This document shows positions 24,421-64,000 of a stretch of 64,000 nt of DNA, piece by piece. The stretch covers positions 378,095 through 442,094 of the forward strand of contig CBDBLV010000002.1 in assembly GCA_965207225.1 (NCBI GenBank). The letters run 5' to 3'. The translations under genes and the position numbers were made by a program. Origin of the DNA: Dehalococcoidia bacterium (lineage in GTDB: Bacteria > Chloroflexota > Dehalococcoidia > Plut-88900). Within the stretch, counting starts at the first letter, position 1. Each line of letters starts with the position of its first letter. The notes below the pieces were generated by a model. It ran no database searches. It saw nothing but the letters and a program-made list of their open reading frames with translations, and was not told the DNA's origin.

Positions 24421-24434
24421 CAGATAAGAGCGGC

Positions 24435-29035: not shown

Positions 29036-29052
29036 TCTCCATAGGGCGCTTG

Positions 29053-29934
29053 ATGAAGCTAAATCGTCTGTTCAGAGAGTTCCTTCGGGATGAAGTCAAC
29101 CCCAACAGGGATAGGCTTGGCAGGCTATATGTTGGTATAAGAGGTGTGAAGCGCCACCTTGAGACGAATTTGAAGGGATACCAGAGAATCGACCGGCAGG
29201 GGTCGCTTGGCTTAGACACACTCATCAAGCCCGTCCGAGACGATGATGAATATGACGCCGATATCCAAGTCGTAATAGACCCTACGCCCGACTGGGAGCC
29301 CAGAGATTACTTCCAAGCACTTAGCGAAACACTGGCCCAGAACGGTAACTACACAGACAAGATTCGCCTAGGGACCCGCTGCGTCACCCTGGAATTCGCT
29401 AGTAACTTTCACCTCGACATGGTCCCCAGGATCACCAAAGATGGTACCCACCTCATCTGCAATCGGGCGACGAACTGCTTTGAACCGACTGATGGAACGG
29501 GATTCCGAGACTGGTTCAGCGATAAAAGCCGTATTACCAAGGTTAATTTGAAGCGGGTCGTGAGATTGCTAAAGTACCTCAGGGACCGCCAGGACAACTA
29601 CGTTGCAAAGTCCATCCTACTCACCACACTGGCCGGGAACACCATACGATCTTCTGACCGGGGAAAAGAGTCTGTGAGGACTGTGGCGAATACTCTGACT
29701 ACGGTCCTGACTAGGATGGATCGCTATTTGCAAAAGAACCCGACAATGCCGCGAATTGAGAACCCTGCCTTATCATCGGAAGACTTCAACAGGCACTGGG
29801 ACCAAGACAGATATAGCTACTTCAGAAATCGTGTTCACTCCCACACTGCGATAGCTCAGAAAGCCCTGGCTTCGCCGACAATCGAGGACTCGATAAGGCT
29901 CTGGAGAAGGCTGTTCGGCGAGGTCTTCGGCTAG
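29053..29934 (+). CDS. cGAS/DncV-like nucleotidyltransferase (CD-NTase, SMODS)
   Basis: QGS...T.IKP, YDADI, HLDMVP, VRLLKYLRD and terminal WRRLFGE motifs. Confidence 0.88.
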   Translation: MKLNRLFREFLRDEVNPNRDRLGRLYVGIRGVKRHLETNLKGYQRIDRQGSLGLDTLIKPVRDDDEYDADIQVVIDPTPDWEPRDYFQALSETLAQNGNYTDKIRLGTRCVTLEFASNFHLDMVPRITKDGTHLICNRATNCFEPTDGTGFRDWFSDKSRITKVNLKRVVRLLKYLRDRQDNYVAKSILLTTLAGNTIRSSDRGKESVRTVANTLTTVLTRMDRYLQKNPTMPRIENPALSSEDFNRHWDQDRYSYFRNRVHSHTAIAQKALASPTIEDSIRLWRRLFGEVFG

Positions 29935-30016
29935 AGGTGGATTAGCTGAGGTTCAAAGCCACCCTAGAGCTGACTTTGGACGACCCCTAAGACAGAAACT
30001 CAATGGGGCAGGGGAA

Positions 30017-30347
30017 ACACTTACTACCGTCTAACCAGAGATGCCACCTAACGTCCCAAGCTGTCGGAGAAGTCGCGTGGGTGCTCAGATGCGATACTCC
30101 CCCACACTTCGGTCGGGCCTATCCAATGTTCAAAAAGTAACTTGTCCTGCCCATCCCTACGTAGGACGCAGCGGTCAGCTTCTAACGACTAGCAGCCTCA
30201 ATATTCCGCACCGCCGACGGCCTCCCCTACCGTGTGGTGTTTCAGCACAGGAGGGGCTTCAAGGCTACAGTCACCATTCAAGACAGCCTCAGCTTGGGCA
30301 TCGTGCGACAGGGACCAGTCTTACAGAACCAGTCTCTTCGCAACTAA
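30017..30347 (+). pseudogene. Decayed paralog fragment of the downstream Replication-relaxation gene
   Basis: 30165-30347 reads DAAVSF*RLAASI...LGIVRQGPVLQNQSLRN*, matching DSIAVLYQVAAMI...VGVMRQGPTLPSSNLRF of 30614..32665. Confidence 0.6.
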
Positions 30348-30613
30348 CAAAGGGGCAGCCGCAGTATTACCGCAGACACCTAATCTAACGACGCTTCCTG
30401 GCAATGGATGGTTTGATGCATCCACCTTAGGTCTCGGAACACCATGATCTTAGACCACATTCCAACCTCAGTGGTCACACTATGAAGAGCACTTTTAGCT
30501 AATTGTGCTGTCTTGCCTCAAGAATCACTTGCCGCGTTGCATAGAAAACCCTTCCTTGCACCCAACTGCTCAATCACAATGAAATGGAGAGCCACTGTGA
30601 TCAAGGATAGTGA

Positions 30614-39300: not shown

Positions 39301-40242
39301 GTTCACCCCCACGTGCGTGGGGACGGCGCGGGAGACCTTGACGGATACGAACAGCACCACGGTTCACCCCCACGTGCGTGGGGACGGCGGCCGGCGGGGT
39401 GCCAGCGTCCGGAATTGTGACGGTTCACCCCCACGTGCGTGGGGACGGCGAGATTAGATTCTTCAACCACTGAATGCAGAACGGTTCACCCCCACGTGCG
39501 TGGGGACGGCGGCTACGTCTCCGACCCAGGTGAAGCATCGTAGGTTCACCCCCACGTGCGTGGGGACGGCTCGTCGGGGTGTCCAGTTTGGACAGGGGCC
39601 TTCGGTTCACCCCCACGTGCGTGGGGACGGCGAAATCGAACAGATCCCGCCGGGGCTTGACTTTGGTTCACCCCCACGTGCGTGGGGACGGCAGTGTCGG
39701 CACTACGGGCGTACCCGCATATGGCGGTTCACCCCCACGTGCGTGGGGACGGCCTGGCCGAGTGGTTGGAGTGGGCCGGTTTCGACGGTTCACCCCCACG
39801 TGCGTGGGGACGGCAGTGAGTGGGTTGAACCAGAGGCGTGGTTGGACGGTTCACCCCCACGTGCGTGGGGACGGCGCAGGGCTATGCCTACGTGCAGCTG
39901 TGGGCGTACGGTTCACCCCCACGTGCGTGGGGACGGCGCAACGCCGGCGCTAGCAGCCCCCGACGTAACCGGTTCACCCCCACGTGCGTGGGGACGGCGA
40001 ATATGGTCATCACGCCTATTCCTACCATTCCGGTTCACCCCCACGTGCGTGGGGACGGCGGCTTGACATAAGCCTCGTGGTCGGGCCTGGTCGGTTCACC
40101 CCCACGTGCGTGGGGACGGCCAGGGCTGAGGACCCGCAATAGCCGTGCCCGCCGGTTCACCCCCACGTGCGTGGGGACGGCTCTTTCGCCCGCCGTGAGT
40201 GGGAGGAGCCCGGCGGTTCACCCCCACGTGCGTGGGGACGGC
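33383..40242 (-). CRISPR. Type I-E CRISPR array, about 113 repeats / 112 spacers (manual count)
   Basis: 29-bp repeat GCCGTCCCCACGCACGTGGGGGTGAACCG (minus strand) with 31-33-bp spacers, 61-bp period; degenerate repeat at the 33383 end, cas2 at the 40242 end. Confidence 0.99.
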
Positions 40243-49986: not shown

Positions 49987-50340
49987 ATGGCTAGGACAGC
50001 TAGGTTCGACGGCGACGCCTTCTTCGCCGCGTTGGACACGGAGAGGCAGGCCCGTCGATGCACCTGGAAGCAGGTGGCGGAGGAGTGCGGCATAAGCGCC
50101 TCCACCTTGACTCGTATGGCTCAAGGCAGACACCCCGACGTGAACGGCCTGGCGGCGCTGGCGACCTGGTCGGGGCTGGACGTGAACCGATTTCTCAGGA
50201 ACCCGTCTGCCGGGGAGGAGCCGGAGCCGCTGGCGGTGATATCTTCCTGCCTACACTCCGACCCTCGTCTCAACGAACAAGCCGCCGTCGCCCTCGACCA
50301 GATGGTCAAGGCAGCCTATAGGAGCATGACGAGCCAGTGA
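49987..50340 (+). CDS. XRE-family HTH regulator
   Basis: TWKQVAEECGISASTLTRMAQG; overlaps the hsdM start. Confidence 0.88.
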   Translation: MARTARFDGDAFFAALDTERQARRCTWKQVAEECGISASTLTRMAQGRHPDVNGLAALATWSGLDVNRFLRNPSAGEEPEPLAVISSCLHSDPRLNEQAAVALDQMVKAAYRSMTSQ

Positions 50341-52313
50341 GCGCACTCAACATCAGCGGCTTCATATGGGGCATCGCCGACGACGTGCTGCGGGACGTCT
50401 ACGTTCGCGGCAAGTACCGCGACGTCATCCTGCCCATGACGGTGATACGGCGGCTCGACGCCGTGCTGGAGCCGACCAAGGATGCGGTGCTTCGCATGAA
50501 AGAGCAGTTGGACGGCGCGGGCATCACCAACCAGGACGCCGCCCTTCGCCAGGCCTCCGGCCAAGCCTTCTACAACACCTCGCCCTTCCGCCTCCGGGAC
50601 CTTGCATCACGCGGTCGGCAACAGCAACTGCGAACCGACTTCGAGGCGTACCTCGACGGCTTCTCTCCCAACATCCAGGAAGTGCTGGACAAGTTCAAAT
50701 TCCGCAACCAGATTCCGACGCTGGTGGACGCCGACGCCCTCGGCTTCCTGTTGGAGAAGTTCCTGGACAGCTCCATCAACCTTAGCCCGCAGCCGGTCCT
50801 CAACGGCGACGGGTCGGTGCGGCTGGACGGCTTGGACAACCACGGAATGGGCACGGTCTTCGAGGAGCTGATCCGGCGATTCAACGAGGAGAACAACGAG
50901 GAGGCGGGAGAGCACTTCACGCCGCGTGACGTGGTGCAGCTTATGGCCCGCCTCATCTTCCTGCCCGTGGCCGAGCAGGTCCAGTCCGGCACCTACCTGG
51001 TATACGACGGCGCGTGCGGCACCGGCGGGATGCTGACGGTTGCCGAAGAGACGCTGACGGAACTGGCTGGTGAGAAGGGCAAGGAGGTTTCCGTTCACCT
51101 CTACGGACAGGAAGTTAACCCGGAAACCTATGCCATCAGTAAGGCCGATCTGATCCTGAAGGGAGAGGGTGTCGAGGCCGACAACATAGGGTTCGGCTCC
51201 ACTCTGGCCGCCGATACCTTCCCTGCCGAAGAGTTCGACTTCATGCTCTCCAATCCGCCCTACGGCAAGAGTTGGAAGACCGACCTGGAGCGCATGGGCG
51301 GCCGGTCCGGCATCATGGACCGCCGCTTCCTCGTCGAGCATGGCGGCGATCCTGACTACTCCCTCATCACCCGTTCCAGCGACGGCCAGATGATGTTCCT
51401 GGCCAACATGCTCAGCAAGATGAAGCGGAACACGGACATAGGCAGCCGCATCGCCGAGGTGCACAACGGTAGTTCCCTCTTCACCGGTGACGCCGGGCAG
51501 GGCGAGAGCAACATCCGACGTTGGATCATCGAGAACGACTGGCTGGAGGCCATCGTCGCCCTGCCCCTAAACATGTTCTACAACACCGGCATCGCCACTT
51601 ACATTTGGGTGCTGAGCAACCGCAAGGCGGCCCACCGCCGGGGCAAGATGCAGCTCATCGACGCGACCCAATGGTTCCGTCCTCTTCGCAAGAACCTTGG
51701 CAACAAGAACTGTGAGCTTTCCGACGAGGACATTCGCCGAATTTGCGATGCCTTCCTTGCCTTTGAGGAGACTGAGCAGTCGAAGATATTCCCCAACGAG
51801 GCTTTCGGCTACTGGAAGGTCACAGTAGAGCGGCCCCTGAGAATAGAGGGTATCGACCCGGAACAGGTCTACTCGGCGAAAGAGATCAGGGCGCTCAAAG
51901 AAGACGGCAAGCAGTCTGAGACCGCGCCGCCGGTAATAAAGAGGGTCCACAAGAGTGACGTGGAGGCAGACCCGCTGTGCGGGCTGTTTGCGGCAACCAT
52001 CAAAGGTAAGCCCGCCGTGGTGGAGTACGAGCCGGACACCGATCTGCGCGACACAGAGCAGGTGTCTCTGTTGGAAGAGGGCAGCATCGAGGCGTTCCTA
52101 CGCCGCGAGGTGCTGCCCTACGCTCCCGACGCCTGGTACGTGCCCGGCAGCGTGAAGGTCGGCTACGAAATCAGCTTCACCCGTCACTTCTACAAGCCCC
52201 AGCCGCTCCGACCCCTGGAGGAGATACGAGCCGACATCCTGGCCCTGGAGCACGAGACGGACGGGCTGTTGGCGGAGATACTGGTCGCAGGTGGGTCGTC
52301 GGATGGCAGGTAG
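50337..52313 (+). CDS. hsdM: Type I R-M methyltransferase subunit M
   Basis: GEHFTPRDV, YDGACGTGGM and NPPY motifs. Confidence 0.97.
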   Translation: MSALNISGFIWGIADDVLRDVYVRGKYRDVILPMTVIRRLDAVLEPTKDAVLRMKEQLDGAGITNQDAALRQASGQAFYNTSPFRLRDLASRGRQQQLRTDFEAYLDGFSPNIQEVLDKFKFRNQIPTLVDADALGFLLEKFLDSSINLSPQPVLNGDGSVRLDGLDNHGMGTVFEELIRRFNEENNEEAGEHFTPRDVVQLMARLIFLPVAEQVQSGTYLVYDGACGTGGMLTVAEETLTELAGEKGKEVSVHLYGQEVNPETYAISKADLILKGEGVEADNIGFGSTLAADTFPAEEFDFMLSNPPYGKSWKTDLERMGGRSGIMDRRFLVEHGGDPDYSLITRSSDGQMMFLANMLSKMKRNTDIGSRIAEVHNGSSLFTGDAGQGESNIRRWIIENDWLEAIVALPLNMFYNTGIATYIWVLSNRKAAHRRGKMQLIDATQWFRPLRKNLGNKNCELSDEDIRRICDAFLAFEETEQSKIFPNEAFGYWKVTVERPLRIEGIDPEQVYSAKEIRALKEDGKQSETAPPVIKRVHKSDVEADPLCGLFAATIKGKPAVVEYEPDTDLRDTEQVSLLEEGSIEAFLRREVLPYAPDAWYVPGSVKVGYEISFTRHFYKPQPLRPLEEIRADILALEHETDGLLAEILVAGGSSDGR

Positions 52314-52353
52314 GGTTCCACCCCTAGAGCAAGCCATCTTGATAGGAGGAAAC

Positions 52354-52572
52354 ATGTCTGAGACGGAGATCATCTTTGAGGTCAGCGAGGACGAGGTGGA
52401 CGGTGGATACACCGCCAGCGCCCTAGGGTACGGCATCCACACGGAGGGCGATTCTCTGGAAGAGTTGCGCGGCAACGTCAAGGAGGCCGTCGATTGTTAC
52501 TTCGACGAGACCATGCGACGGCCCAAGCTGATTCGGCTGCACTTCGTACGCGAGGAGGTATTGGTCGCGTGA
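52354..52572 (+). CDS. hicB: HicB-like antitoxin
   Basis: DGGYTASA...TEGDSLEELRGNVKEAV; AGGAGG RBS. Confidence 0.8.
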   Translation: MSETEIIFEVSEDEVDGGYTASALGYGIHTEGDSLEELRGNVKEAVDCYFDETMRRPKLIRLHFVREEVLVA

Positions 52573-52811
52573 GTTTGCCCCGCGATGTGAGCGGCGCTTC
52601 CCTACAGTCGTCGCTTCGACGGCTGGGTTACGAAGCCGTACGGCAGCGCGGTTCTCACGTGCGCGTAACGACGCAGGTCAACGGTGAACACCACGAGGTG
52701 ATCCCACAACACAACCCGATCAAGGCGAAGACGCTGTTGAGTATCTTGAAGAGTGTGGCGCGGCATCACGGAGTGAGTGTGGACGAACTCCTCAGCGAGT
52801 TGAAGCTATGA
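52569..52811 (+). CDS. hicA: HicA-like toxin
   Basis: LGYEAVRQRGSHV...IPQH motif; GTGA overlap with hicB. Confidence 0.85.
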   Translation: MSLPRDVSGASLQSSLRRLGYEAVRQRGSHVRVTTQVNGEHHEVIPQHNPIKAKTLLSILKSVARHHGVSVDELLSELKL

Positions 52812-54193
52812 GCGCGAGCCTCTCCATAGGACTACTCAAGAGCTACCCCGACTACAAACCCTCTGGCGTCGAGTGGCTGGAAGAGGTGCCGACACATTGG
52901 GAATCGGTCCGACTAAAGGGCCATGCGTCAAATGTCGTTGACCTAACCAGAGAGTCAAGCGCCGACGACATCTATCTTGCCTTGGAGCACGTTGAGAGTT
53001 GGACAGGCAGGTTCGCCCCTGCCGGCAATGGTGTCGGGTTTGACAGCCAAGTAAAGCGCTTCAGGTCTGGGGATGTGCTTTTTGGCAAGTTGCGACCATA
53101 CTTGGCGAAGGTGACATGCCCGAACAATAGCGGGGTTTGCGTTGGCGAATTCTTAGTGCTGCGACCGAGCGCTGCAACTTTGTCAGCGAGGTACCTTGAG
53201 AAGTTGCTACGCTCGCAGCCAGCCATCGATGCGATAGACGCATCCACCTTTGGAGCGAAGATGCCCCGAGCTGATTGGCAATTCATCGGTGACATGCGTG
53301 TCCCCCTCCCACCCCTGCCAGAGCAGCAAGCCATCGTCCGTTACCTGGACTACGTGGACCGGCGCATCCGGCGATACGTAGACGCCAAGCGAAAGCTGAT
53401 CTCCCTCCTGGAGGAGGAGCGGCAGGCCGTCGTCAATCGGGCCGTCACACGCGGCCTCGACCCCAACGTCCGCCTCAAGCCCTCCGGCGCCGAGTGGCTT
53501 GGGGACGTGCCTGAGCATTGGGAGGTACGGCGGCTGAAGACAATATGCAGTATGAAGAGTGGTGAAGGCATAACTGCCGAGTCCATAGAAGCGGTTGGCG
53601 ACTACCCCGTCTATGGTGGCAACGGACTGCGCGGGTATGCTTCAAGCTATACACACGACGGCGCATTCGTCCTGATTGGCAGGCAAGGTGCTCTATGCGG
53701 GAACGTGCATATAGCACGCGGCCGGTTCTGGGCTTCGGAACATGCTGTGGTCGCAGCCCAAATTGGTGGTCAAGAGATTGGCTGGTTCGGCGCGATTCTC
53801 ACAGCCATGAACCTGAACCAATACTCAATCGCCGCCGCACAACCGGGGCTGGCAGTCGAACGGATACTGAATCTCTATCTGCCTGTCCCTTCCACCATTG
53901 AACAACGGACCATAGCCGAACATCTCGACAGGGCCACCACCAACATCGAAGCCGCCATCGCCCGCGCCCGGCGGCAGGTCGAGTTGGTGGAGGAGTACCG
54001 CACCCGGCTCATCGCCGACGTGGTGACTGGCAAACTGGACGTGCGTGAAGCGTCGGCGCAACTGCCCGACGAGGCCGAGGACGACGAACCGATAGGAGAA
54101 GGCGGCCCACGGCAGAACGGCTTAGCTGAAGACATCTACGATATCGAGCAATCGACGCAAGAGCTTGGAGTCGAAAGCGAGGTGACAAGATGA
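52808..54193 (+). CDS. hsdS: Type I R-M specificity subunit S
   Basis: Two K-PSG-(V/A)EWL..VP.HWE conserved regions flanking two TRDs; VVTGKLDV; acidic tail. Confidence 0.95.
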   Translation: MSASLSIGLLKSYPDYKPSGVEWLEEVPTHWESVRLKGHASNVVDLTRESSADDIYLALEHVESWTGRFAPAGNGVGFDSQVKRFRSGDVLFGKLRPYLAKVTCPNNSGVCVGEFLVLRPSAATLSARYLEKLLRSQPAIDAIDASTFGAKMPRADWQFIGDMRVPLPPLPEQQAIVRYLDYVDRRIRRYVDAKRKLISLLEEERQAVVNRAVTRGLDPNVRLKPSGAEWLGDVPEHWEVRRLKTICSMKSGEGITAESIEAVGDYPVYGGNGLRGYASSYTHDGAFVLIGRQGALCGNVHIARGRFWASEHAVVAAQIGGQEIGWFGAILTAMNLNQYSIAAAQPGLAVERILNLYLPVPSTIEQRTIAEHLDRATTNIEAAIARARRQVELVEEYRTRLIADVVTGKLDVREASAQLPDEAEDDEPIGEGGPRQNGLAEDIYDIEQSTQELGVESEVTR

Positions 54194-54429
54194 CGGACTG
54201 GAGCAAATGCCCGGCGGTGGAGAGCGTACCTGGCAGGCTGAGTGGAGCCTGGGTGTTCACCGGCACCAGGATTCCGGTATCCGCCCTGTTCGGGAATCTC
54301 GCGGAGGGGGCCACCGTCAAGGACTTCCTCGACTGGTTTCCCGGCGTGAAGGAGTGGCAAGTGAGGGCTGCGCTGGAACACGAGGTGCAGAGCCTCGACG
54401 CCAAGGTGAAGCTTGAGAATCCTGTTTGA
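54190..54429 (+). CDS. DUF433 antitoxin, copy 1
   Basis: PGRLSGAWVFTGTRIPV...GATVKDFLDWFPGV. Confidence 0.88.
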   Translation: MTDWSKCPAVESVPGRLSGAWVFTGTRIPVSALFGNLAEGATVKDFLDWFPGVKEWQVRAALEHEVQSLDAKVKLENPV

Positions 54430-54730
54430 CCACAACGTACCCGAGCCGCTCCGCGACCACCTTGCCGAACACGACGTACATACAGCGGATGAACGGGGAT
54501 GGGCGGAGGTATCGAACGGCGAGCTTCTGGACCAGGCGGAGACGGCAGGCTATGAATTGCTGATAACGGCAGACCAGAATATGCGGCATCAGCAGGTCCT
54601 CAGCCGCAGGCAGATAGCCTTCGTCCTCCTGCGCTCCAACAGATGGCCGATAGTTCAGCCGTGGGTGGAGGACATTCGCGCCGCCATTGAGGGGCTACAG
54701 CCTGGTGAACTTAGGGAAGTCCCCAACTGA
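54413..54730 (+). CDS. DUF5615 PIN-like toxin, copy 1
   Basis: RILFDHNVP, GW...NGELL and LITADQN motifs. Confidence 0.85.
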   Translation: MRILFDHNVPEPLRDHLAEHDVHTADERGWAEVSNGELLDQAETAGYELLITADQNMRHQQVLSRRQIAFVLLRSNRWPIVQPWVEDIRAAIEGLQPGELREVPN

Positions 54731-54734
54731 GTCA

Positions 54735-54818
54735 GGCTTGCCAATAGAGGAAGGCGGACGAATGGCAGAAGGTATGTAGTCGGCGAAGGATCAGGGAAAT
54801 CGAAAGCGAGGTGACAGC
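54735..54818 (+). repeat. Diverged second copy of the hsdS 3' tail
   Basis: TCGAAAGCGAGGTGACA identical at 54171-54187 and 54800-54816; upstream CC.ATAG..GAAGGCGG..GGCAGAA similarity. Confidence 0.75.
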
Positions 54819-55067
54819 ATGATTGACTGGTCGAAGTGCCCTGGTGTGGAGCAAATCCCCGGCAAGGTGAGCGGGGCTTGGGTATTCAAGAACACCCGTC
54901 TTCCCCTATACGTCCTCTTCGATAATCTGGCTGGAGGAGCGACCGTCTACGACTTCATCGACTGGTTTGGGGGAGTAACAGAGTCAGAAGTCAGAGAGGT
55001 CCTGGAGTTCGCGGCACAGGAACTCCGCGCCGATCTTGTGGTTGCCGATGCGCATCCTGTTCGATAA
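54819..55067 (+). CDS. DUF433 antitoxin, copy 2
   Basis: MIDWSKCPGVEQIPGKVSGAWVF; paralog of 54190..54429. Confidence 0.88.
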   Translation: MIDWSKCPGVEQIPGKVSGAWVFKNTRLPLYVLFDNLAGGATVYDFIDWFGGVTESEVREVLEFAAQELRADLVVADAHPVR

Positions 55068-55383
55068 CGGCACGCCCAGACAGCTGCGCTCTCGTCTCTT
55101 CAACCATGAAGTCGAAGAGGCCAGGGAGCGCGGTTGGGACGTCCTGTCGAACGGCGACTTGCTGGACAAGGCCGAAGAAGCCGGTTTCGAGGTGTTGGTC
55201 ACCACCGACCAGAACCTCCGATACCAGCAGAACTTGTCGAACAGACGAATTGCCGTAGTGGTGCTGATGAACGCCGATTGGAATCGCATATCGCGGCAAA
55301 CGGAGCGCATCCGCGCAGCCCTGGACGGCATAGATCCAGGGGAAGTGCGGGAAGTCCCCATTCCGATGCGAGACGAGGGATAG
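55048..55383 (+). CDS. DUF5615 PIN-like toxin, copy 2
   Basis: MRILFDNGTP, NGDLL and VTTDQNL motifs. Confidence 0.85.
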   Translation: MRILFDNGTPRQLRSRLFNHEVEEARERGWDVLSNGDLLDKAEEAGFEVLVTTDQNLRYQQNLSNRRIAVVVLMNADWNRISRQTERIRAALDGIDPGEVREVPIPMRDEG

Positions 55384-55384
55384 C

Positions 55385-58300
55385 GTGACCACCGACACAA
55401 GCGAGAAGGGCCTTGAACGCCTCATCTGCGAGGCGATGACAGGCGCTGCCTGCGACCCGTCACAGGGATGCGTGGAAGCCGAACGGCCTTCCGGCTACGG
55501 CACGGGCTGGATATGCGGTGACCCTCAGGACTACAACCGCGAGTACTGCGTAGACCTAGCCCAACTCTCCGCTTTTCTACGAGACACCCAGCCGGTCGTT
55601 GCCGAATCGCTCGGCTTGGATGATGAGAACCCCACACGGCGCAGGTTCCTGGCCAGATTGCAAGGAGAGGTCACGAAGCGAGGCACCGTCGATGTGCTGC
55701 GCAAGGGAATCAAGCACGGTCCGTATCTGATCGACCTGATGTACGGCACGCCGTCGCCGGGGAACGACAGAGCCGCTATCCTGTACGAGCAGAACCGCTT
55801 CAGCGTGACCCGGCAACTGCGCTACAGCAACGACAACACGCAGTTGGCCCTTGACCTGTGCTTGTTCGTCAACGGTCTGCCCGTCGCCACGTTCGAGCTG
55901 AAGAACAGCTTGACCAAGCAGACCGTGGACGACGCCGTGGAGCAGTACAAGCGGGACCGCAACCCCAGGGAGCGGCTCTTCGAGCTTGGCCGCTGCCTGG
56001 CCCACTTCGCCGTAGACGACCACGAGGTGCAGTTCTGTACCAAGGTTGAAGGGAAAGCGTCCTGGTTCCTGCCCTTCAACAAGGGGTGGAACGACGGCAA
56101 GGGCAATCCGCCCAATCCCAACGGACTCAAGACCGACTACCTCTGGAAGCAGGTGCTCACCCGGGACAGCCTCGTCAACATCATCGAAAACTACGCCCAG
56201 ATAGTGGAGAGCAAGGACGACAGGACGAGCAAGAAGAAGCGTGAGCAGATATGGCCCCGCTACCATCAGTTGGAGGTGGTGCGGAGTCTGCTTTCGGATG
56301 CATCCGCCACGGGAGTCGGAGCCAAGTACCTGATTCAGCACTCGGCGGGCAGCGGCAAGTCAAACTCCATCGCATGGCTGGCCCATCAGCTGATAGGACT
56401 GGAGCGGGACGACGCACACATCTTCGACACCGTGGTGGTCGTCACCGACCGCAGGGTGCTGGACAGGCAGATACGGGACACCATCAAGCAGTTCGCCCAG
56501 GTCGGCTCCGTCGTCGGTCATGCCGAAACCTCAGCCCAGCTTAGCGCCTTCTTGCAGCAAGGCAAACGCATCGCCATTACCACCGTGCAGAAGTTCCCCT
56601 TCATCCTGGACGCCATCGGCAACGAGCACCGGGGACGCAGCTTCGCCATTATCATCGACGAAGCGCATTCCAGCCAGGGCGGCCGCACGTCGGCGGCGAT
56701 GTCCACGGCGCTTGGGGAGTCCGGTAGCGAGAAGAAGGACGAGACCACCGAGGACAAGGTCAACCGCATCATGGAGAGCAAGAAGATGCTGGCCAACGCC
56801 AGCTACTTCGCCTTCACCGCGACGCCCAAGAACAAGACGCTGGAGATATTCGGCGCGCCCGTCCCGGAAGGAGGAGCTACGAAGCACGTTCCCTTCCACT
56901 CCTACACCATGAAGCAGGCCATCGAGGAGCGGTTCATCATCGACGTGCTGGCGAACTATACGCCGGTGAACAGCTACTACCGGCTGGTGAAGGCTGTGGA
57001 GGGCGACCCGGAATTCGATACCAAGAGAGCGGGGAAGAAGCTGCGCCGCTACGTGGAAGACCACGACCACGCCATCCGATTGAAGGCGGAGATCATGGTG
57101 GACCATTTCCACGAGCAGGTTGCGGGATTGCAAAAGATTGGCGGGCAGGCGCGGGCGATGGTGGTCACCAGCAGCATCCAGCGGGCCATCACCTACTTTC
57201 TCGCCATCCGTGACTACCTTGCGAAGCGCAAGAGTCCCTACAAGGCCATTGCCGCCTTCTCCGGCGAGCCAGAGTACAACGGCGGGAAGGTCACCGAGAC
57301 GTCCCTCAACGGCTTCTCGTCGAACCTCATCGCCGAGAAAATTCAGGAGGAGCCGTACCGCTTCCTGGTGTGCGCCGACAAGTTCCAGACCGGCTACGAC
57401 GAGCCGCTGTTGCACACCATGTACGTGGACAAGCCCTTATCGGGTGTGAGAGCCGTGCAGACCCTCTCGCGACTCAACCGGGCGCATCCGAAGAAGGACA
57501 ACGCCTTCGTGCTGGACTTCGCCAACGACGCGGACACCATCCAGCACGCCTTCGCCGACTACTATCGCACCACCATCCTCTCGGAGGAGACCGACCCCGA
57601 CCGGCTCCACGACCTGAAGGCGTCCCTAGACGGCTATCAGGTCTACGACCCGGCTCAGGTGGACGAATTGGTGAAGCGCTTCTTGGCGAAGGAAAGCCGA
57701 GACCGCCTCGACCCCATCCTGGACGCCTGCGTCGCGGTCTACCTGGAGTTGGACGAAGACGGGCAGGTGGACTTCAAGGGCAAGGCCAAGGCGTTCCTGC
57801 GGGCGTACGGGTTCCTGGCCGCCATCCTGCCGTACACCGACGCCGAGTGGGAGAAGCTCTCTATCTTCCTCACCTTCCTCATTCCCAAGCTGCCCGCTCC
57901 GGTAGAGGACGACCTGTCGAAGGGGATTCTGGAAGCCATCGACATGGACAGCTACCGGGTGGAGAAGCAGGCGGTGCAGGCCATCCAGTTGGCCGACGAG
58001 GATGCGGAGATCGGGCCGGTCCCAACCGAGGGCGGCGGACAGAAGCCTGAGCTGGAGATGGACCGGCTGTCCAACATCATCAGGCAGTTCAACGATCGGT
58101 TTGGCAACATCGAATGGAAGGACAAGGATAAGATCGACAAGGTGCTGGCCGAGGAGCTTCCCACCAAAGTTTCAGAGGACAGGGCCTACCGGAACGCCAT
58201 GGCCAACTCCGACCACCAAAACGCCCGAATTGAACACGACAGGGCCTTGGAACGAGCCATCACCGACTATCTCGCAGACCACGCGGAACTGTACAAGCAA

Positions 58301-58390
58301 TTCAGCGACAACGACTCGTTCCGCCGTGAACTTTCCGACATGATCTTCGCATTGACTTACGCCGAAGGGAACACGACCGTCGGCGCATAG
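55385..58390 (+). CDS. hsdR: Type I R-M restriction subunit R
   Basis: D-LCLFVNGLPVATFELKN, QHSAGSGKS, DEAH, FTATP and QTLSRLNR motifs. Confidence 0.97.
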   Translation: MTTDTSEKGLERLICEAMTGAACDPSQGCVEAERPSGYGTGWICGDPQDYNREYCVDLAQLSAFLRDTQPVVAESLGLDDENPTRRRFLARLQGEVTKRGTVDVLRKGIKHGPYLIDLMYGTPSPGNDRAAILYEQNRFSVTRQLRYSNDNTQLALDLCLFVNGLPVATFELKNSLTKQTVDDAVEQYKRDRNPRERLFELGRCLAHFAVDDHEVQFCTKVEGKASWFLPFNKGWNDGKGNPPNPNGLKTDYLWKQVLTRDSLVNIIENYAQIVESKDDRTSKKKREQIWPRYHQLEVVRSLLSDASATGVGAKYLIQHSAGSGKSNSIAWLAHQLIGLERDDAHIFDTVVVVTDRRVLDRQIRDTIKQFAQVGSVVGHAETSAQLSAFLQQGKRIAITTVQKFPFILDAIGNEHRGRSFAIIIDEAHSSQGGRTSAAMSTALGESGSEKKDETTEDKVNRIMESKKMLANASYFAFTATPKNKTLEIFGAPVPEGGATKHVPFHSYTMKQAIEERFIIDVLANYTPVNSYYRLVKAVEGDPEFDTKRAGKKLRRYVEDHDHAIRLKAEIMVDHFHEQVAGLQKIGGQARAMVVTSSIQRAITYFLAIRDYLAKRKSPYKAIAAFSGEPEYNGGKVTETSLNGFSSNLIAEKIQEEPYRFLVCADKFQTGYDEPLLHTMYVDKPLSGVRAVQTLSRLNRAHPKKDNAFVLDFANDADTIQHAFADYYRTTILSEETDPDRLHDLKASLDGYQVYDPAQVDELVKRFLAKESRDRLDPILDACVAVYLELDEDGQVDFKGKAKAFLRAYGFLAAILPYTDAEWEKLSIFLTFLIPKLPAPVEDDLSKGILEAIDMDSYRVEKQAVQAIQLADEDAEIGPVPTEGGGQKPELEMDRLSNIIRQFNDRFGNIEWKDKDKIDKVLAEELPTKVSEDRAYRNAMANSDHQNARIEHDRALERAITDYLADHAELYKQFSDNDSFRRELSDMIFALTYAEGNTTVGA

Positions 58391-58504
58391 GTGCGGTATT
58401 GGGCGGACTGATGAGGTTCCGACCAGTCTGCCGATGCCTCATGAATTTGAAGGTTTCCCGTCGGAGGAGAAACGCGGGACGTAGATCTCTGAAGGACAGG
58501 CTCG

Positions 58505-58750
58505 ATGCCGAGACAGCGCACCGACTATTACAGAAGAACCTATGGCTTCCCTGACGACTTCACGGAACGCCTCAAGCGATTTCAGAGGGAGTCCGGCCTG
58601 TCTTGGTCCGAGATTGCAAGGCGCATCGGCGCCTACCGCCATACGGTCTTTCGTTGGGTGAATGTCAGCAGCCGCCCCAACACCGAGCACATGATGGCCC
58701 TGCTCGAACTGGCCGAGGGCTTGAGATTAGCCCACATATTCACCGAGTAG
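58505..58750 (+). CDS. XRE-family HTH protein
   Basis: SGLSWSEIARRIGAYRHTVFRW. Confidence 0.8.
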   Translation: MPRQRTDYYRRTYGFPDDFTERLKRFQRESGLSWSEIARRIGAYRHTVFRWVNVSSRPNTEHMMALLELAEGLRLAHIFTE

Positions 58751-58815
58751 GGATGCTGCTCTACCACCGGTAGTGAGGAAGGCCACCGGAAGTTGATGGC
58801 CTCCCTCACATACAC

Positions 58816-59964
58816 CTATGCGGTCGCCGCCCCCGGCTGCCTGAGCAGGGTGGAGTAGCTCGGGGCCACCACGTGGTCCACCGACACCTTCCCGGCGCCG
58901 TCGTACCCGGTGCGGAAGGCGTACTCCACCTCCGCGCCCCAGGGCACGCGGCCGCCGACACGCACCGCGCCGCCCCTGGCAGTGCCGTCGCGTCCGCGAG
59001 CGCCGTGCACCACCATCCCGCTGCGCTCACCCTTCTTCCAGCCGAGTACCTTCAAGGCCACGGGCATCACCCGCTCCTCTCCCTGGGTCCGCTTGAACAG
59101 CGCCCCGTGCAGCTTTCTCAGCACCACGGCTGACGGGGTGCTTCTGCCGTTCATGATCTGGGAGAGGTGGCCGGAGCTGATGCCCGCCCTACGCGCCACC
59201 TCGTTCTGGCTGACGCCCAGTTCGTCCATCTGCTGCCAGACGAACTGCCGGTCGATGTCGGGACACTGGGCGGAGGCCACCTTCGCCTGCCCCCCAAGCA
59301 CAGCCTCGACCCGCGCCTGGAGCTTGACTCCCATATGCCTGTGACCTCTGGCCACCATGGACAGGTAGCTCGCGGACACCCCGACCTTCTCGGCCAGCTC
59401 TCTCATGGTCATTCCGAGGGCTCGGGCGCGCTCCCGGATAAAGCTGCTGCCCGTCCCATCGACCACCTCTCCCTGTCGGTTGGCGAGCCTGGCGGAGGCG
59501 ACCCTGGCCGCCACCCCAAGTGCCGACTCTATCTGGGCCTGCACCTTGGGTCCCATCTGCCTGCGACCCCTGGCCACCTGGGTCAGGTAGCCGTAGCTCA
59601 CTCCCGACCGGTCGGAGAGTTCCAGCATGGTCATTCCGAGGGTCCGCGCGGTCTCCCGGATGTAGGAACTCTCGGAGGTGACCTCGCCGCCCTGTCGGTA
59701 GACGAAGCCCTGTCCGGGCACCTCGCCGAGGACCGCCATCGCCTTCTCCCGCAGGTTGGGGGTCCAGGGCTTCTTGCCCGTGCCGACCTGGGAGAGGTGG
59801 CTGGCGCTGACTCCCATCAGGGCCGCCAACTCCTTCACTGTCAGCCCTTTTTTCCTGGCCACAGCCCTGAGCTCGCTCTCCGGCCTGCCCCTGCGCTCTT
59901 CGGACGCTGCCGCATTCGTCGTTGTCTTCGTCGAGTTGATCGTCGTGGTGGTTGCCGTCGTCAT
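58816..59964 (-). CDS. Protein with four tandem XRE-type HTH domains and a Gly-rich C-terminal domain
   Basis: Four G(L/M/V)(T/S)..E(L/V)(A/S)...G(V/I)S..(H/Y)L(S/T) units; AAAGGAG RBS before ATG at 59964. Confidence 0.85.
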   Translation of the reverse strand: MTTATTTTINSTKTTTNAAASEERRGRPESELRAVARKKGLTVKELAALMGVSASHLSQVGTGKKPWTPNLREKAMAVLGEVPGQGFVYRQGGEVTSESSYIRETARTLGMTMLELSDRSGVSYGYLTQVARGRRQMGPKVQAQIESALGVAARVASARLANRQGEVVDGTGSSFIRERARALGMTMRELAEKVGVSASYLSMVARGHRHMGVKLQARVEAVLGGQAKVASAQCPDIDRQFVWQQMDELGVSQNEVARRAGISSGHLSQIMNGRSTPSAVVLRKLHGALFKRTQGEERVMPVALKVLGWKKGERSGMVVHGARGRDGTARGGAVRVGGRVPWGAEVEYAFRTGYDGAGKVSVDHVVAPSYSTLLRQPGAATA

Positions 59965-60632
59965 GGCGCTTCTCCTTTGAATGAAGAAGCGGGACGGCCG
60001 CCACCCCCGTGGGGTGGAGACAGTCCCGCTCTGAATTGGCGTCCCGAATGGCCGGGACTGTCTCCGTGGGTTTTGTGTTGTCGTTTGGATTCGCCTGTTG
60101 CCGGCAAAGAGAAGGGCCGCCCCCTCCTTAGTGGAGAGAGCGGCCCTCTGGTCACCGGCTGCTGTGAGCCTTGGACGCGGTGGCCTCCAGGCCAGGACTC
60201 GGGGCGTCAAAGCTGCCGGAGCTGGCTGCGACGCCCTTGCCTACGAATTTACTCAACGTGCATGTGCACCTCCTTTCCGTACCGTTGTTGTCCCGCGCGG
60301 CATCCGGGGCGCGGGTCGTGCGTGACGGGTTCGGTTGACGCAAGACGCACCTCGCCCACGGTCGGATGCCGGACGCGGGGACGAAGTGGATGAGATGGAC
60401 GCAGTTCGCCTAGGGTCACGTCACCGGAGGAGCGACCGAGGGGAGAGAGCTGCGAGACGAGAACCGGCCAGCCCGCTTGCATTGGTAGACCGGCGCGTGT
60501 CGAGGCTGCGTGTCAGCCTAACCGCAGACATGTTGAATCAGTCGAAGTGACAGACCAGTCTGCAACAGGCAGCACGTACTTCGACCGACCGGGTGGGGAC
60601 GAGGGCATAGAAGGCGCACCTATCCCCTGCAT

Positions 60633-60800
60633 CCGACGGACGAGGCGATCAACCCCAGCCGCCAGACCTGTGCCCGACGGATGAGGCGATCAACCCCAGC
60701 CGTCAGACTGGTGCCCGGTGTGTGAAGCGATCAACTCCACTCGCCGGACGGGTGCCCAGCGGGTGAAGGACCAACGTCAAACTTCCACCGCCGGACTGAG
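60633..60800. repeat. 41-bp tandem repeat, three copies plus one degenerate
   Basis: Units start at 60633, 60674, 60715 and 60756; core GA(G/A)GCGATCAAC(C/T)CCA...GAC...GTGC. Confidence 0.85.
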
Positions 60801-61299
60801 CCGAGGACGGAGGGCTTTTTCACTCCGTCGAATCGGCCCGCGCTGGTTACGAAGGACCAACGTCAAACTCCGCATTGCCAGCATTCCCTCTTGGGCAAAG
60901 CCCGTGCAACAGGGATCACGCACCCAGGTTTCTGTGGTCGGAAACCTTGGAGAAAGCCAAACAGTGCAACCATTATTAGCAGACCGTCGCGGCGTTGAGA
61001 AGGCTTTGACGACGCTATGGCCCAAATCGGTTGATTCAGTTCATATCCACTTCAACTAAAGTTCACATTAATCGGTGAGCCGGCCCTGTTCATGGTCGAG
61101 CACGTCACTTCGACCATAGTCGCAGGGTCAGCAAGCGCCGCAACGTGCCCGTAAGCTGCGCCCTCTTCCGCGCCCTCCGCGTGCCGGAGAGCGCGGCGTA
61201 AGCGCCGGGTGGTGTCCCTCCGGCCCCGACCAGGAGATTTTGACCCGGCCCGATCACGACCTACGCCCCAATCTCGTCGTCGCGCTGACTCATCCACCG

Positions 61300-63055
61300 A
61301 CCGGCGTAATGCACCCCCACATCCCCTGCCTTCTTCGCCCCGTTTTCCGCTCCGCCAGCCGATTCCCGGCGACGCGTGCCCCCCACCGTCGAACGGAGTT
61401 TGAGGCAAATGACCTGAACGCACTCTTTCAACAAGCCGTTCGCTGATCACGTCCAGTAGGGGGCCTTTTCCGCCCATTTCAGCTTGCCCACGACCGGTTG
61501 ACGCGCCACCTACAAAACTCCATCTGCTGTACAGCCCCATTGCTTCCAAAGGCAGTCCGTTTTCCGACGACCTCGGAGGGTGCATCACGAGCGATGCACG
61601 CTATGGGTAGTATCCAGCCGTTTTCCGTTGCTCACGCTCTCCTGCGCGTCTAAGCCTCATCACTTGGAAAATCCAAGTTTCACTGGGGGCTCTTCCAAGT
61701 CCGGCCCGTCTCCTTTCAGTTGGAATATCCAAGCCTGGCACCGTGACTTTCCAAGTCACCGCCGGAATGAGCCCTTCCCCCAAAGTGCTTCCCGTTTACG
61801 TCCGGTAGGGGGCTCTTATCCCTGTTCCAGCTACGAAATCACCCCACTTGGATTTTCCAACCCAATGCCATTTCTCTGTACACCCCAGCTACAGCGCGGC
61901 AGGGTTCGGTTCCGTAAGCCCACGCGTGCAGGTGCATCTCCGCACCTGCGAGTGGGAGGTTCCGAATCGCATATCCGTTGTTCACACTCTCTTGCGAGGG
62001 CTTCGGTCCGGCGAACCGTGCCCCGGCGCTGCCGTTGCCCAGCTTCTACACCAGATCGTTCAGGAGGGCCATGAGTCTCATGCGGTACATGTTCTGCCCG
62101 TCCCAGCTCTCCTCAATGTCGCATTCGGTCGTGCTCATCTACTTTTGCCCCTCGCGGGAAATTCGTTACAGATTCGGAGTCCAGCAAGTCCGTGTTTCTA
62201 GTGTTGTCTCGGCTGGCGTAACGCACCCCCGCCTCAAGCCGACTTTTGGGCCGCTTTTGTCATCGGACCGCCGATTTGGGCCGCGTCATGCACCCCCACC
62301 TCAAGCCCCCTCTTGTCATTGCCGACCGGAATCCGCCCTTTCACCAAAGTGTTCACAGTTCACCTCCTGTAGGGGGCGTTTTGCCCCTGATTCAGCTACG
62401 AAATCACAGCTTCGACCACTTCGTCACCAAACTCCATTTCCTGTACACCCCTGCCACTGCAAGAAACCGGCCTCCGATTGGAGACCTTCCGTGGTGCCAC
62501 CATGCGTGAGGTCTTTTTCGGCGTCTCGGTCGTTCACACTCTTTTGCGAACGCTGCGATCAAGCACGTCGGAGCAAACGGGAGAGAGGTGAATGAGTTGG
62601 CGCTGAAAGCAAAGCTCCGGTCGGCAGGACGGCTCATGTCGTTGGGTATTGCGCCCGGTCCTGTCCTGCTTTTAGCCGGACGTCACGCACCCCCACGTCA
62701 AACGGCTTTTTCGGCCCGTTTTCCGATCGGCCGCCGATTGTGGGCCGCGTCCTGCACCCCCACGTCAATCGCGTTTTCTCGATTTCGACCGGACTGCGGC
62801 CTTTCAACGAAGTGTTCACAACTTACGTCCAATAGAGGGGCGATCTACCCCTGTTTCAGCTTTGCCGCGGACTGTTTGACGTGTCACCGGCAAAACTCGA
62901 TCTCCTGTACAGCCCCGATACATCAGGTCGGAGACCGATTTCCAAGATTCCCGCAGGGTGGGAGCCGGAGGCAGGGGCGTCCGGCTCCCACCTCCGTCTC
63001 CCGTCGCCGTAGCTAGTATTCAACCCCTTTTCGGTTGTTCACACTCTTTAGCAAC
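61300..63055. repeat. Four diverged non-coding modules with a conserved motif order
   Basis: GCACCCCC pair, TAG(A)GGGG, CTGTACA(C/G)CCC, hairpin and GT(T/C)G(T/C)TCAC(A/G)CTCT boxes recur in the same order. Confidence 0.8.
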
Positions 63056-63090
63056 TCCCTTGAAGCGCTGAACCGATAGGAGCCGGAACG

Positions 63091-63357
63091 ATGTACTCAC
63101 GGAAGGCCAACGAACGGAAGGATCACCGAAAGCGCCCGGTGCGGGCGGTCGTCCGGCTCGACACGGCGGCGCTCTGGAGGCGGTTGGCCCTGCTGAATCG
63201 CTCCCAGTCCTGGCTCGCCCGAGAGATCGGGATAAGCCCCGGCTACCTCTCCATGCTGATCAACGCGGGGCGAGCCCCCTCCGGCCGCATCCGGGAGCGG
63301 ATGCAGAAGGCCCTTGGAGTGGACGACTTCAGCGACCTTTTCGGGCTGGAGGAATAG
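63091..63357 (+). CDS. XRE-family HTH protein
   Basis: SQSWLAREIGISPGYLSMLINAGRAPS; AGGAG RBS; resembles the fourth HTH of 58816..59964. Confidence 0.88.
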   Translation: MYSRKANERKDHRKRPVRAVVRLDTAALWRRLALLNRSQSWLAREIGISPGYLSMLINAGRAPSGRIRERMQKALGVDDFSDLFGLEE

Positions 63358-63468
63358 CCATGAAGCAACCTGACGTTACGCCCGCTCGTCCCGTGCCGAA
63401 GACGGCCCACTGCCAAACATGACAACGAGAGGCCAGCGGCGCCACACAGGCCGCTGCGACTGTGACCC

Positions 63469-63693
63469 ATGAGAGACAGCATCGAGAAGGGAATACGAAA
63501 GAGACCCGCAGGCCGGAAGCTTGAACGCGCCCTGGAGAGCTCCATGCCGTCCTACACCCCGGAATATCGCAGGGCCGTCCTCAAGGGGTTGCGTATCCTG
63601 GCGAGAGTCGCCATCCGCTCCTACATGGAGGAGAAGGCGGAGGCATCGCTACCGACCGAGGCTGTGGAGGACAACGGCGAGGAGGCGGGCTAG
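63469..63693 (+). CDS. Small hypothetical protein
   Basis: Codirectional with the HTH gene; helical GLRILARVAIRSY segment. Confidence 0.55.
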   Translation: MRDSIEKGIRKRPAGRKLERALESSMPSYTPEYRRAVLKGLRILARVAIRSYMEEKAEASLPTEAVEDNGEEAG

Positions 63694-63762
63694 TTGGACG
63701 AGAGGGTGTGCGGCGAGTGCCGGACGTCCCGATGGGACCAGGAAGACTTGCAGGATTCTAGT

Positions 63763-64000
63763 CTAAGTGCCTTCAACAACGAGGCTCAAATCGACAATGC
63801 TCTTTGTCGTGACCTCAACTATTCCCCAGCCGCTACCCTTCAAGTCGCCCTGAATGGACCGGGCTATCCCCTTAGGACCATCAAACTCGTCGAAGAGGAC
63901 CAACTTGAACTCCATGTCATCCGTAAGATCATGTCCCTTGTTTTTCAAGACAGACCTGATGTCGGAAGGCTGAGTTTCACAATGTCGTTGCAAATTCTCG
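63763..64000 (-). CDS. 3' end of an unidentified gene (partial)
   Basis: Open frame runs to the window edge with protein-like composition. Confidence 0.5.
   Translation of the reverse strand, partial: ENLQRHCETQPSDIRSVLKNKGHDLTDDMEFKLVLFDEFDGPKGIARSIQGDLKGSGWGIVEVTTKSIVDLSLVVEGT

Follow-up and report, generated by a model that had tools for sequence, protein, structure and literature searches.

Stacked cassettes in a Dehalococcoidia genome are probable control regions of conjugation operons in integrative and conjugative elements

Within a 64,000-nt stretch of a Dehalococcoidia bacterium genome (Chloroflexota; GenBank assembly GCA_965207225.1, contig CBDBLV010000002.1, forward-strand positions 378,095 to 442,094; hereafter the window), positions 61300..63055 hold four co-directional units of 350-460 bp each (U1 to U4). 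We conclude that these units are probably the operator, promoter and long-leader control regions of conjugation operons carried by integrative and conjugative elements (ICEs) and integrative and mobilizable elements (IMEs) of Dehalococcoidia, with four heterologous copies stacked in the window. The kind of switch is in itself ordinary; the ICE/IME family and the stacking are previously undescribed, and literature pairing Dehalococcoidia with conjugative or related terms gave, among the matches listed, no account of such elements.

Four conserved units in series

The units, all on the plus strand, are made up as follows.

U1, 61300-61650, plus strand: 5' boxes at 61311 and 61378, core from about 61411, TAGGGGG at 61457, CTGTACAGCCC at 61527, hairpin at 61580-61599, terminal box at 61627-61640; profile positions 4-364.
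U2, 61650-62010, plus strand: palindromes CTTGGA-N3/4-TCCAAG at 61661-61678 and 61717-61732 (upstream) and at 61845-61860 (in the core), TAGGGGG at 61806, CTGTACACCCC at 61876, hairpin at 61928-61949, terminal box at 61977-61990; recognized by repeat families and a profile match.
U3, 62210-62587, plus strand: 5' boxes at 62223 and 62290, TAGGGGG at 62370, CTGTACACCCC at 62441, imperfect hairpin at about 62478-62512, terminal box at 62529-62542, a small inner hairpin and a Shine-Dalgarno sequence at 62581-62588; recognized by blast.
U4, 62675-63055, plus strand: 5' boxes at 62687 and 62754, TAGAGGGG at 62833, TGACGTGTCA palindrome at about 62877-62886, CTGTACAGCCC at 62905, hairpin at 62957-62992, terminal box at 63034-63047; profile positions 2-381.

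Direct inspection of the letters recovered every box that a preliminary description of this DNA had placed here. The 5' box GCACCCCC stands at 61311, 62223, 62290, 62687 and 62754 and its variant GCCCCCCA at 61378, members of a pair being always 67 bp apart, followed by TAG(A)GGGG (61457, 61806, 62370 and 62833), CTGTACA(C/G)CCC (61527, 61876, 62441 and 62905) and a terminal GTTGTTCACACTCT-like box (61627, 61977, 62529 and 63034). The terminal box matches four times in the window against 0.17 expected, a count reached by none of 100 shuffles, and the pattern GTAGRGGG-N58-76-CTGTACASCCC three times against 0.00 expected; U4, with ATAGAGGGG, escapes this pattern. Repeat families of 61 nt and 40 nt, each in four copies, run in register across U1 to U4, and a MAFFT alignment of the four units has a mean column identity of 66%. 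The unit-specific hairpins are equally real, comprising GTGCATC/GATGCAC at 61580-61599, GCAGGTGC/GCACCTGC at 61928-61949 and an inverted repeat with 16-nt arms at 62957-62992. U2 had been taken for a 5'-truncated unit, and it does lack the pair of boxes 67 bp apart, but its 5' half is a different module, built on the three CTTGGA-N3/4-TCCAAG palindromes that begin at 61661, 61717 and 61845.

The earlier view that the units encode no protein holds, as the ORFs (open reading frames) differ in frame and start between copies. A decayed protein-coding repeat was rejected, the reading frames over the units not being shared by the copies, as was a small minus-strand ORF from GTGAAC, in which start codon and frame are both unconserved. 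A miniature inverted-repeat transposable element or insertion sequence remnant was likewise rejected, since none of the 14 inverted-repeat pairs found sits at unit ends. The sequence between the boxes had been described as diverged with its spacing kept, and box spacing indeed holds in homologous loci. Across 58000-64000 of the window, Rfam gave no match on either strand at E up to 1, and ARAGORN no tRNA or tmRNA gene. Contigs from independent public runs (four runs, two studies) bridge the U3/U4 junction with no differences, and a single contig of 742 nt spans the U1/U2 junction and shows 21 differences; because independent contigs bridge these junctions, the array is real DNA rather than an assembly artefact.

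A dispersed cassette upstream of conjugation and mobilization operons

Alignment of the four units, as the preliminary description had proposed, and searches of genomes show the unit to be a dispersed cassette that belongs to a family of mobile elements. Within the genome of the window (coordinates prefixed C2 to C5), blast with U3 found 34 places, 13 of them 81-85% identical over at least 326 nt, and a profile of the four units found 35 places, 21 near full length. Many-gened context is provided by an element of about 30 kb present in several copies, of which C5:2003423-2033924 is 95% identical to C4:709009-737271. By Pfam, the left part of such a copy consists of a gene with four helix-turn-helix (HTH) domains (minus strand), about 2.3 kb without genes, a 285-aa ORF without a family (minus strand) and the unit; after the unit come a 205-aa gene, TrbL/VirB6, two type IV secretion system (T4SS) pilins, a VirB4-like ATPase, a coupling protein, a Replic_Relax relaxase and two large serine recombinases. 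An excerpt of PMC5357655 equates Replic_Relax (PF13814) with the MOBC class of relaxases, and this relaxase together with the gene order makes the element an ICE in which the unit sits directly upstream of the secretion operon. The unit lies mid-element in intact ICEs, not at their ends.

Blast among 61 related genomes matched seven, all from the window's own family, in which seven of the 12 genomes match. A scan of species-representative genomes for TGTAGRGGG-N58-76-CTGTACASCCC yielded at least 84 stretches (loci numbered with L below), nearly all of which, among the matches listed, come from Dehalococcoidia metagenome-assembled genomes; the nhmmer profile confirms the unit in 78 of the 84 loci so fetched, among the matches listed. 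In 42 of these 78 (again among the matches listed), a secretion operon follows the unit on the same strand, in the order T4first205, VirB6-like, pilin, p565, pilin, p434, VirB4-like, coupling protein (T4CP) and MOBC relaxase. In elements without T4SS genes, the unit precedes a relaxase, T4CP-relaxase, HTH88 (an 88-aa HTH protein) or recombinase operon and is always co-oriented with it. It lies between a distant MOBC gene (29-32% identical) and a serine-recombinase module in ten loci (L043, L073, L083, L085, L092, L093, L112, L115, L120 and L055), before a T4CP-MOBC-recombinase operon in L102 and before HTH88 in L047, L057, L068 and L105. Some T4SS-less elements of the window's genome hold two or three units with one operon behind each, and in all contexts examined in this genome the terminal box stops a few tens of nucleotides before the next start codon.

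Two further features of these elements were observed. An insertion sequence of 2.25 kb, encoding an rve transposase of the Mu type and, on the same strand, one more ORF, lies at C5:2021475-2023720 and has five more copies (two 100% and three 99.7% identical); it disrupts the VirB4-like gene in one copy of the ICE and adjoins several unit arrays. The 23-nt box of U3, CGCGTCATGCACCCCCACCTCAA, also occurs alone and 100% identical at C5:2036884, C5:1983624, C5:1955293, C5:1064579, C3:80129 and C3:63853; at C5:2036884, the one place inspected, it adjoins an IME-type MOBC gene.

The upstream repeats follow a divergent regulator gene

An ORF of 270-285 aa, here called DivR, reads away from the core in 35 of 40 ICE-context loci among the matches listed, its start lying 115-232 nt (median 174) upstream of the core. 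A divergent putative regulator gene therefore adjoins the conjugation operon, the arrangement described for plasmid pLS20, and the window keeps just a 34-codon stump of it. An AlphaFold model of DivR built with 25 homologues (mean pLDDT 81.8) has a three-helix N-terminal domain, a coiled coil of about 45 residues, a disordered linker and a helical C-terminal domain, which is conserved. The top rows of a Foldseek search, all weak, were mostly Cro/Xre/C-protein HTH domains, on which basis the modelled N-terminal domain is plausibly helix-turn-helix-like.

The 5' half of the unit is lineage-specific. In many lineages a perfect palindrome of the form N6-AAAA-N6 is present twice, at a distance of 56-68 bp, and once more within the core, some 35 nt before CTGTACA; TTCCGAAAACGGAA / TTCCGTTTTCGGAA, TTGCAAAAATGCAA and GATTGCACTTCTGCAATC are instances, and CTTGGAAAATCCAAG stands at the three U2 positions. 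In U1, U3 and U4, the 5' repeats are boxes of the GCACCCCC (or GCACCCCCAC) type, 67 bp apart. The arrangement of one palindrome twice upstream and once in the core recurs in the TTCCG, TGCAA and CCAAG lineages, U2 included, giving sets of predicted sites. The palindrome type differs between clusters of DivR HTH sequences, each type going with its own DivR HTH segment. Two lineages whose relaxase N-termini are 92-96% identical, and whose core and leader are nearly identical, nevertheless have different DivR genes and different 5' repeats, the exchange point between them being the start of the core. The 5' repeats were accordingly rejected as relaxase binding sites, near-identical relaxase N-termini being paired with two repeat types; because the repeats follow DivR and not the relaxase, they are better seen as part of a swappable regulator-plus-operator module. 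Binding of DivR to these repeats is what we infer from their association.

The preliminary description had paired the modules with the flanking HTH genes, a pairing that is probably wrong. The boxes track DivR and not the four-HTH gene; the latter stands within the 10 kb upstream of the unit in some homologous loci only, and the single-HTH gene (HTH88) is merely the gene downstream of U4.

The core and the predicted leader RNA

The core of about 140 nt is almost free of insertions and deletions across lineages and runs through CCGGAA.., CAAAGTGTTCAC, TCCTGTAGGGGG-loop-CCCC, TTTCAGCT and TTTCCTGTACACCCC; its structure is limited to a short GGGG/CCCC hairpin and a possible invariant pairing of UGUAGGGG with UUCCUGUACA. 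The core of most units opens with CCGGAAC-N18-GTTC, which lies some 10-15 nt ahead of the first RNA-level features. The GGAAC-N18-GTT within this motif resembles the consensus GGAA(T/C)-N17-19-GTT of extracytoplasmic function (ECF) sigma factors of the SigH/SigE/SigR type, as given in an excerpt of PMC10012870.

The variable hairpin downstream of the core is conserved by compensatory changes, with both-side changes in 12 of its 13 pairs and 88.2% of cells paired. Scored together with an invariant 8-pair helix, it reached a covariation score of 0.43 against 0.20 in shuffles, none of 500 being as high, a figure that is not a probability because the sequences are related; 92.8% of cells in the same structure are paired, against 34-60% with the 3' partners slid. 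As an intrinsic terminator this hairpin was rejected, a T-run following it in some lineages only, and a terminator scan returned one terminator-like site, on the minus strand.

Further downstream, the GTTGTTCACACTCT box and the CTTGCG that follows it are complementary to CGCAGAGAGGTGAACA, in which the first secretion gene has its Shine-Dalgarno sequence and start, and the pairing encloses a small second hairpin. Of 18 leaders that were folded, the box could be placed in 15, and 14 of these 15 have the helix in their minimum-free-energy fold; the helix is also the RNAalifold consensus of 24 leaders. Over 264 cells, 95.5% are paired, against 44-66% when the partners are slid; 42 cells are G-U, pairs that work in plus-strand RNA only. 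In U3, the fold of 62524-62603, which joins the box with the Shine-Dalgarno and start region, has -32.5 kcal/mol (z -3.18; none of 200 shuffles as good), whilst in U1 and U2 the pairing partner of the box is lost. Collectively, these features suggest that the 3' third of the units behaves like a structured leader RNA. The CACACT of the terminal box had been considered as a -10 element, an idea that was given up since the pairing of this box with the ribosome-binding site makes its transcription probable.

From this organization a working model can be proposed. In an intact ICE, the unit fills the gap between the divergent DivR gene and the type IV secretion operon, and DivR would bind repeats flanking a promoter at the core start, possibly with DNA looping. 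The promoter would be non-canonical and served by an alternative sigma factor or an activator. The predicted transcript would carry a leader of about 270-330 nt in which the hairpin and the helix against the Shine-Dalgarno sequence add control at the RNA level, the latter helix hiding the ribosome-binding site of the first secretion gene. In the window, U1 and U2 have lost their 3' ends, U3 retains a leader and a gene stump, and U4 would drive the HTH gene of an IME-like module.

Composition and possible constraint of the stack

Two gene remnants lie within the stack.

DivR stump, 62145..62041, minus strand: 34 codons, corresponding by homology to residues 1-30 of full-length DivR (270-285 aa).
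Stump of the first secretion gene, 62588..62675, plus strand: VNELALKAKLRSAGRL... vs VNVLAQKSKLRSARRL..., the intact protein having 205 aa.

Each unit joins its neighbour differently. U1 is cut about 10 nt past its terminal box, where the first palindrome of U2 starts, and has neither ribosome-binding site nor gene; its closest kin are units that precede T4SS operons elsewhere (loci L033, L086 and L089). U2 belongs to a lineage other than that of U1, its type preceding T4SS operons in L039, L041 and L067, and its leader is cut after about 35 nt and then fused to the DivR stump, which tblastn with DivR also recovered (C2:440232-440053). U3 is of the type found in the intact ICE copies of the genome (81-85% identity) and has a complete leader, after which 25-30 codons remain of the first secretion gene. 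The cores of the stacked units have an identity of just 0.66-0.78 and, because the four units belong to different lineages, the stack is not a local duplication. Heterologous versions piled up by recombination between elements provide the best reading of this composition.

A paralogous stack with the order U1-U2-stump-U3 lies at C5:2070411-2071666 and is about 80% identical. Substitutions between the two stacks affect 79 of 514 family-conserved columns (15.4%) against 178 of 775 variable columns (23.0%; Fisher p 8e-4), which suggests that the stack is under some continuing constraint. Stacking is also found elsewhere, stacks of two to four units being present in at least nine distinct loci of other genomes, with two units in L043/L112, L045, L092, L093, L104 and L120 and, by profile, four in L042 and three in L056. 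The junction composed of a unit tail, a piece of about 25 codons from the first T4SS gene, CCGGTCCYGTCC.. and the next unit was observed at C3:94172, C4:693509, C5:1933536 and C5:137432 as well as at 62588-62690 of the window; this recurring sequence may be the footprint of an element inserting into the first T4SS gene.

Weighing the explanations

Several observations weigh against the units being control regions of this kind. DivR has no Pfam or NCBIfam match and its model no Foldseek match in the PDB at E up to 0.001, and the co-variation of DivR with the repeats could be mere linkage, the two being physically adjacent. By tblastn, the window's genome holds no intact U2-type DivR; outside the two stacks, this genome has the U2 palindrome in just one other unit. 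RNAalifold, run on either strand with 27 and with 99 sequences, detected no consensus structure for the core, and the plus strand of the units has no canonical sigma-70 promoter, such as the tRNA genes of the same genome do have. The ECF-like motif differs from ECF promoters in being kept in just 64 of 100 units (22 of 40 ICE-context units among the matches listed) and in belonging to an element that encodes no sigma factor; it is present in U1 and U3 and absent from U2, U4 and the multicopy ICE of the genome, whose four sigma-70-family genes all lie outside ICE copies. That this motif is the promoter is possible but rather doubtful. The helix between terminal box and Shine-Dalgarno sequence has no pair changed on both sides and shuffles do as well, so it represents conserved complementarity rather than proven covariation, and in U4, which precedes HTH88, the box lacks a good partner (fold z +0.96). 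Lastly, the invariance of the two search boxes in the pattern-fetched loci is there by construction, as these loci were fetched with those boxes; both boxes are also conserved in the blast-derived set, in which conservation is not by construction.

The units might instead be origins of transfer (oriT) of the ICE/IME family, with the relaxase or accessory proteins binding the 5' repeats and nicking near the hairpin, and with a stack of four letting several helpers mobilize the element. Such a function would suit the ICE relaxase, a Replic_Relax protein with an N-terminal winged-helix region (excerpt of PMC5357655), and there is a precedent for repeats distant from nic in the MOBC prototype TraX of pAD1, which binds five direct repeats 70-120 bp away from it (excerpted review, PMC12857230). 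The pAD1 oriT2/TraX system and the units have in common the MOBC superfamily, the N-terminal winged helix and repeats distant from an inverted repeat; the units moreover combine repeats with a structurally conserved hairpin and are present in T4SS-less elements. The 5' repeats, however, do not follow the relaxase even where its N-termini are 92-96% identical, and IMEs with a relaxase just 29-32% identical have the same core boxes. In the ICE the unit is about 9 kb from the relaxase gene, some IMEs have two or three units each before an operon, and in all contexts examined the unit is co-oriented with the next gene and abuts its start codon at a near-constant distance, its G-U-rich helices taking in the ribosome-binding site. 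An oriT is for these reasons an improbable explanation, and its role would in any case be compatible with that of a control region.

Least probable of all are free-standing structured non-coding RNA genes, whether small RNAs or a ribozyme-like array. The covarying hairpin and the roughly 140 nt strongly conserved at fixed spacing without an ORF would be expected of such genes, yet the core lacks a consensus structure on either strand, Rfam has no match, a T-run that could terminate the RNA is inconsistent between lineages and, outside stacks, every complete unit examined leads into a ribosome-binding site and a gene. We also considered that the stack is a mere scar of recombination in which U1 to U3 are inert, or that the units are attachment sites of the serine recombinases, and judge both to be unlikely, to about the same degree as an oriT. 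A scar would account for U1 and U2 being without ribosome-binding site and gene, for DivR and the first T4SS gene being stumps, for the recurrence at four other places in the genome of the junction described above, and for stacked units being just 66-78% identical in the core. It accords poorly with the U1-U2-stump-U3 order kept in a paralogue 80% identical, with fewer substitutions at family-conserved columns, and with stacks in other genomes, whilst the mid-element position of units in intact ICEs speaks against attachment sites. Of the options in the preliminary description, which had proposed a functional multipartite element, operator-promoter modules thus fit; an array of structured RNAs is unsupported for the core, and stacked origins or recombination sites are disfavoured.

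Beyond the reading as control regions of conjugation operons, the stacks themselves might be working devices. Heterologous cassettes in series before one operon could let an element that lost its own regulator, or never possessed one, sense how active several resident ICE lineages are in the manner of an OR gate, maybe doubling as transfer recognition sites; we regard this as a speculative and fairly unlikely extension.

Relation to known systems and implications

The closest described system is, by analogy, the conjugation switch of pLS20 from Bacillus subtilis. This plasmid is described as having a repressor, Rco, overlapping divergent promoters Pr and Pc, and operators OI and OII with DNA looping; its promoter is set at an unusual distance from the first gene, and its 456-nt leader contains a long stem-loop attenuator of the cATT zipper type, said to be common in Gram-positive conjugative plasmids (PMC4207663, PMC13401043). 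Resemblances to the unit comprise the divergent regulator gene adjoining the conjugation operon, repeated predicted regulator sites on both sides of a presumed promoter, a control region unusually far from the first gene and a predicted leader dominated by a long imperfect stem-loop. No sequence or family relation is evident, DivR being without a Pfam family and likened to Rco by arrangement alone, and the phylum differs, as does the element, here an ICE that encodes a MOBC relaxase and serine recombinases. In the unit, the final helix of the leader is predicted to cover the ribosome-binding site rather than to form a demonstrated terminator, and the cassette is portable, placed also before operons of T4SS-less elements and in stacks. 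Compared with pAD1, the unit repeats do not covary with the relaxase, and the unit is far from the ICE relaxase gene, co-oriented and next to start codons.

The SetCD and AcaCD boxes on mobilizable genomic islands and on SGI1 are helper-controlled promoters on mobilizable islands. They resemble the unit in that the same cis element stands before transfer operons of conjugative elements and before genes of hitchhikers, and differ in that whole 350-bp cassettes, rather than a short activator box, are here common to both and stacked.

Dehalococcoidia, including sponge-associated and SAR202-type lineages, are mostly uncultured, and gene exchange among them is barely known. The cassettes described here expose a large family of ICEs and dependent elements, present in multiple copies and equipped with a recognizable control cassette, together with a putative new regulator family having readable predicted operator specificities, roughly one palindrome type per regulator type. 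The cassette should provide a handy metagenome marker for these elements and the operator-regulator pairs a natural set of orthogonal switches; if functional, the stacks would show how hitchhiking elements listen to several helpers.

Genes and other features around the array

The genes flanking the array are the following.

HTH81, 58505..58750, plus strand: 81-aa HTH gene, Pfam HTH_23 and HTH_31.
Four-HTH regulator gene, 58816..60210, minus strand: four Pfam HTH_3 stretches, part of the ICE left arm.
HTH88, 63091..63357, plus strand: 88-aa HTH_3 gene (Pfam), preceded by U4.
p74, 63469..63693, plus strand: 74-aa gene that follows HTH88 in homologous elements, recognized by neighbourhood comparison.

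In homologous ICEs of other genomes, HTH81 and the four-HTH gene are often found together upstream of the unit. Copies of the four-HTH gene, 83-92% identical, stand beside other ICE copies of the window's genome; the real start probably lies downstream of the listed TTG, since the homologues have 385 aa. The HTH88 start codon is 44 nt past the terminal box of U4. In L105 the order is unit, HTH88, p74 and serine recombinase, and the unit-HTH88 pair was also found in L047 and at C5:159713. Because the window ends at the contig end, the left arm is the only part of the ICE-like element visible here.

Within this left arm, the non-coding stretch 60440-61080, of which 60679-60966 is conserved at 87-92% in other copies, contains a 41-bp repeat in three tandem copies (60626-60748), GAAGGACCAACGTCAAACT twice at a distance of 86 bp and, at 61020-61080, an AT-rich spot with GTTCACA-like motifs. 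It is a competing oriT candidate for the element.

A very large CRISPR array with 108 copies of a 29-nt repeat (GGTTCACCCCCACGTGCGTGGGGACGGC-like) and 104 spacers occupies 33446-40242 of the window, adjoined by a complete type I-E cas operon on the minus strand at 40.5-49.1 kb (Cas1, Cas6e/CRISPR_assoc, Cas5, Cas7, Cse1 and Cas3). Compared with the genome, the spacers gave just two partial matches of 17-19 nt and none in the ICE copies; the CACCCCCACGT that the CRISPR repeat has in common with the 5' box of the units is probably a coincidence. On either side, 24339-32665 and 50337-58390 constitute a defence island, encoding a SNF2/PLD helicase-nuclease, patatin and SMODS proteins resembling a cyclic oligonucleotide-based anti-phage signalling system (CBASS) and a type I restriction-modification system (HsdM, HsdS and HsdR). 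A second Replic_Relax (MOBC) protein of 683 aa is encoded within this island, at 30614-32662.

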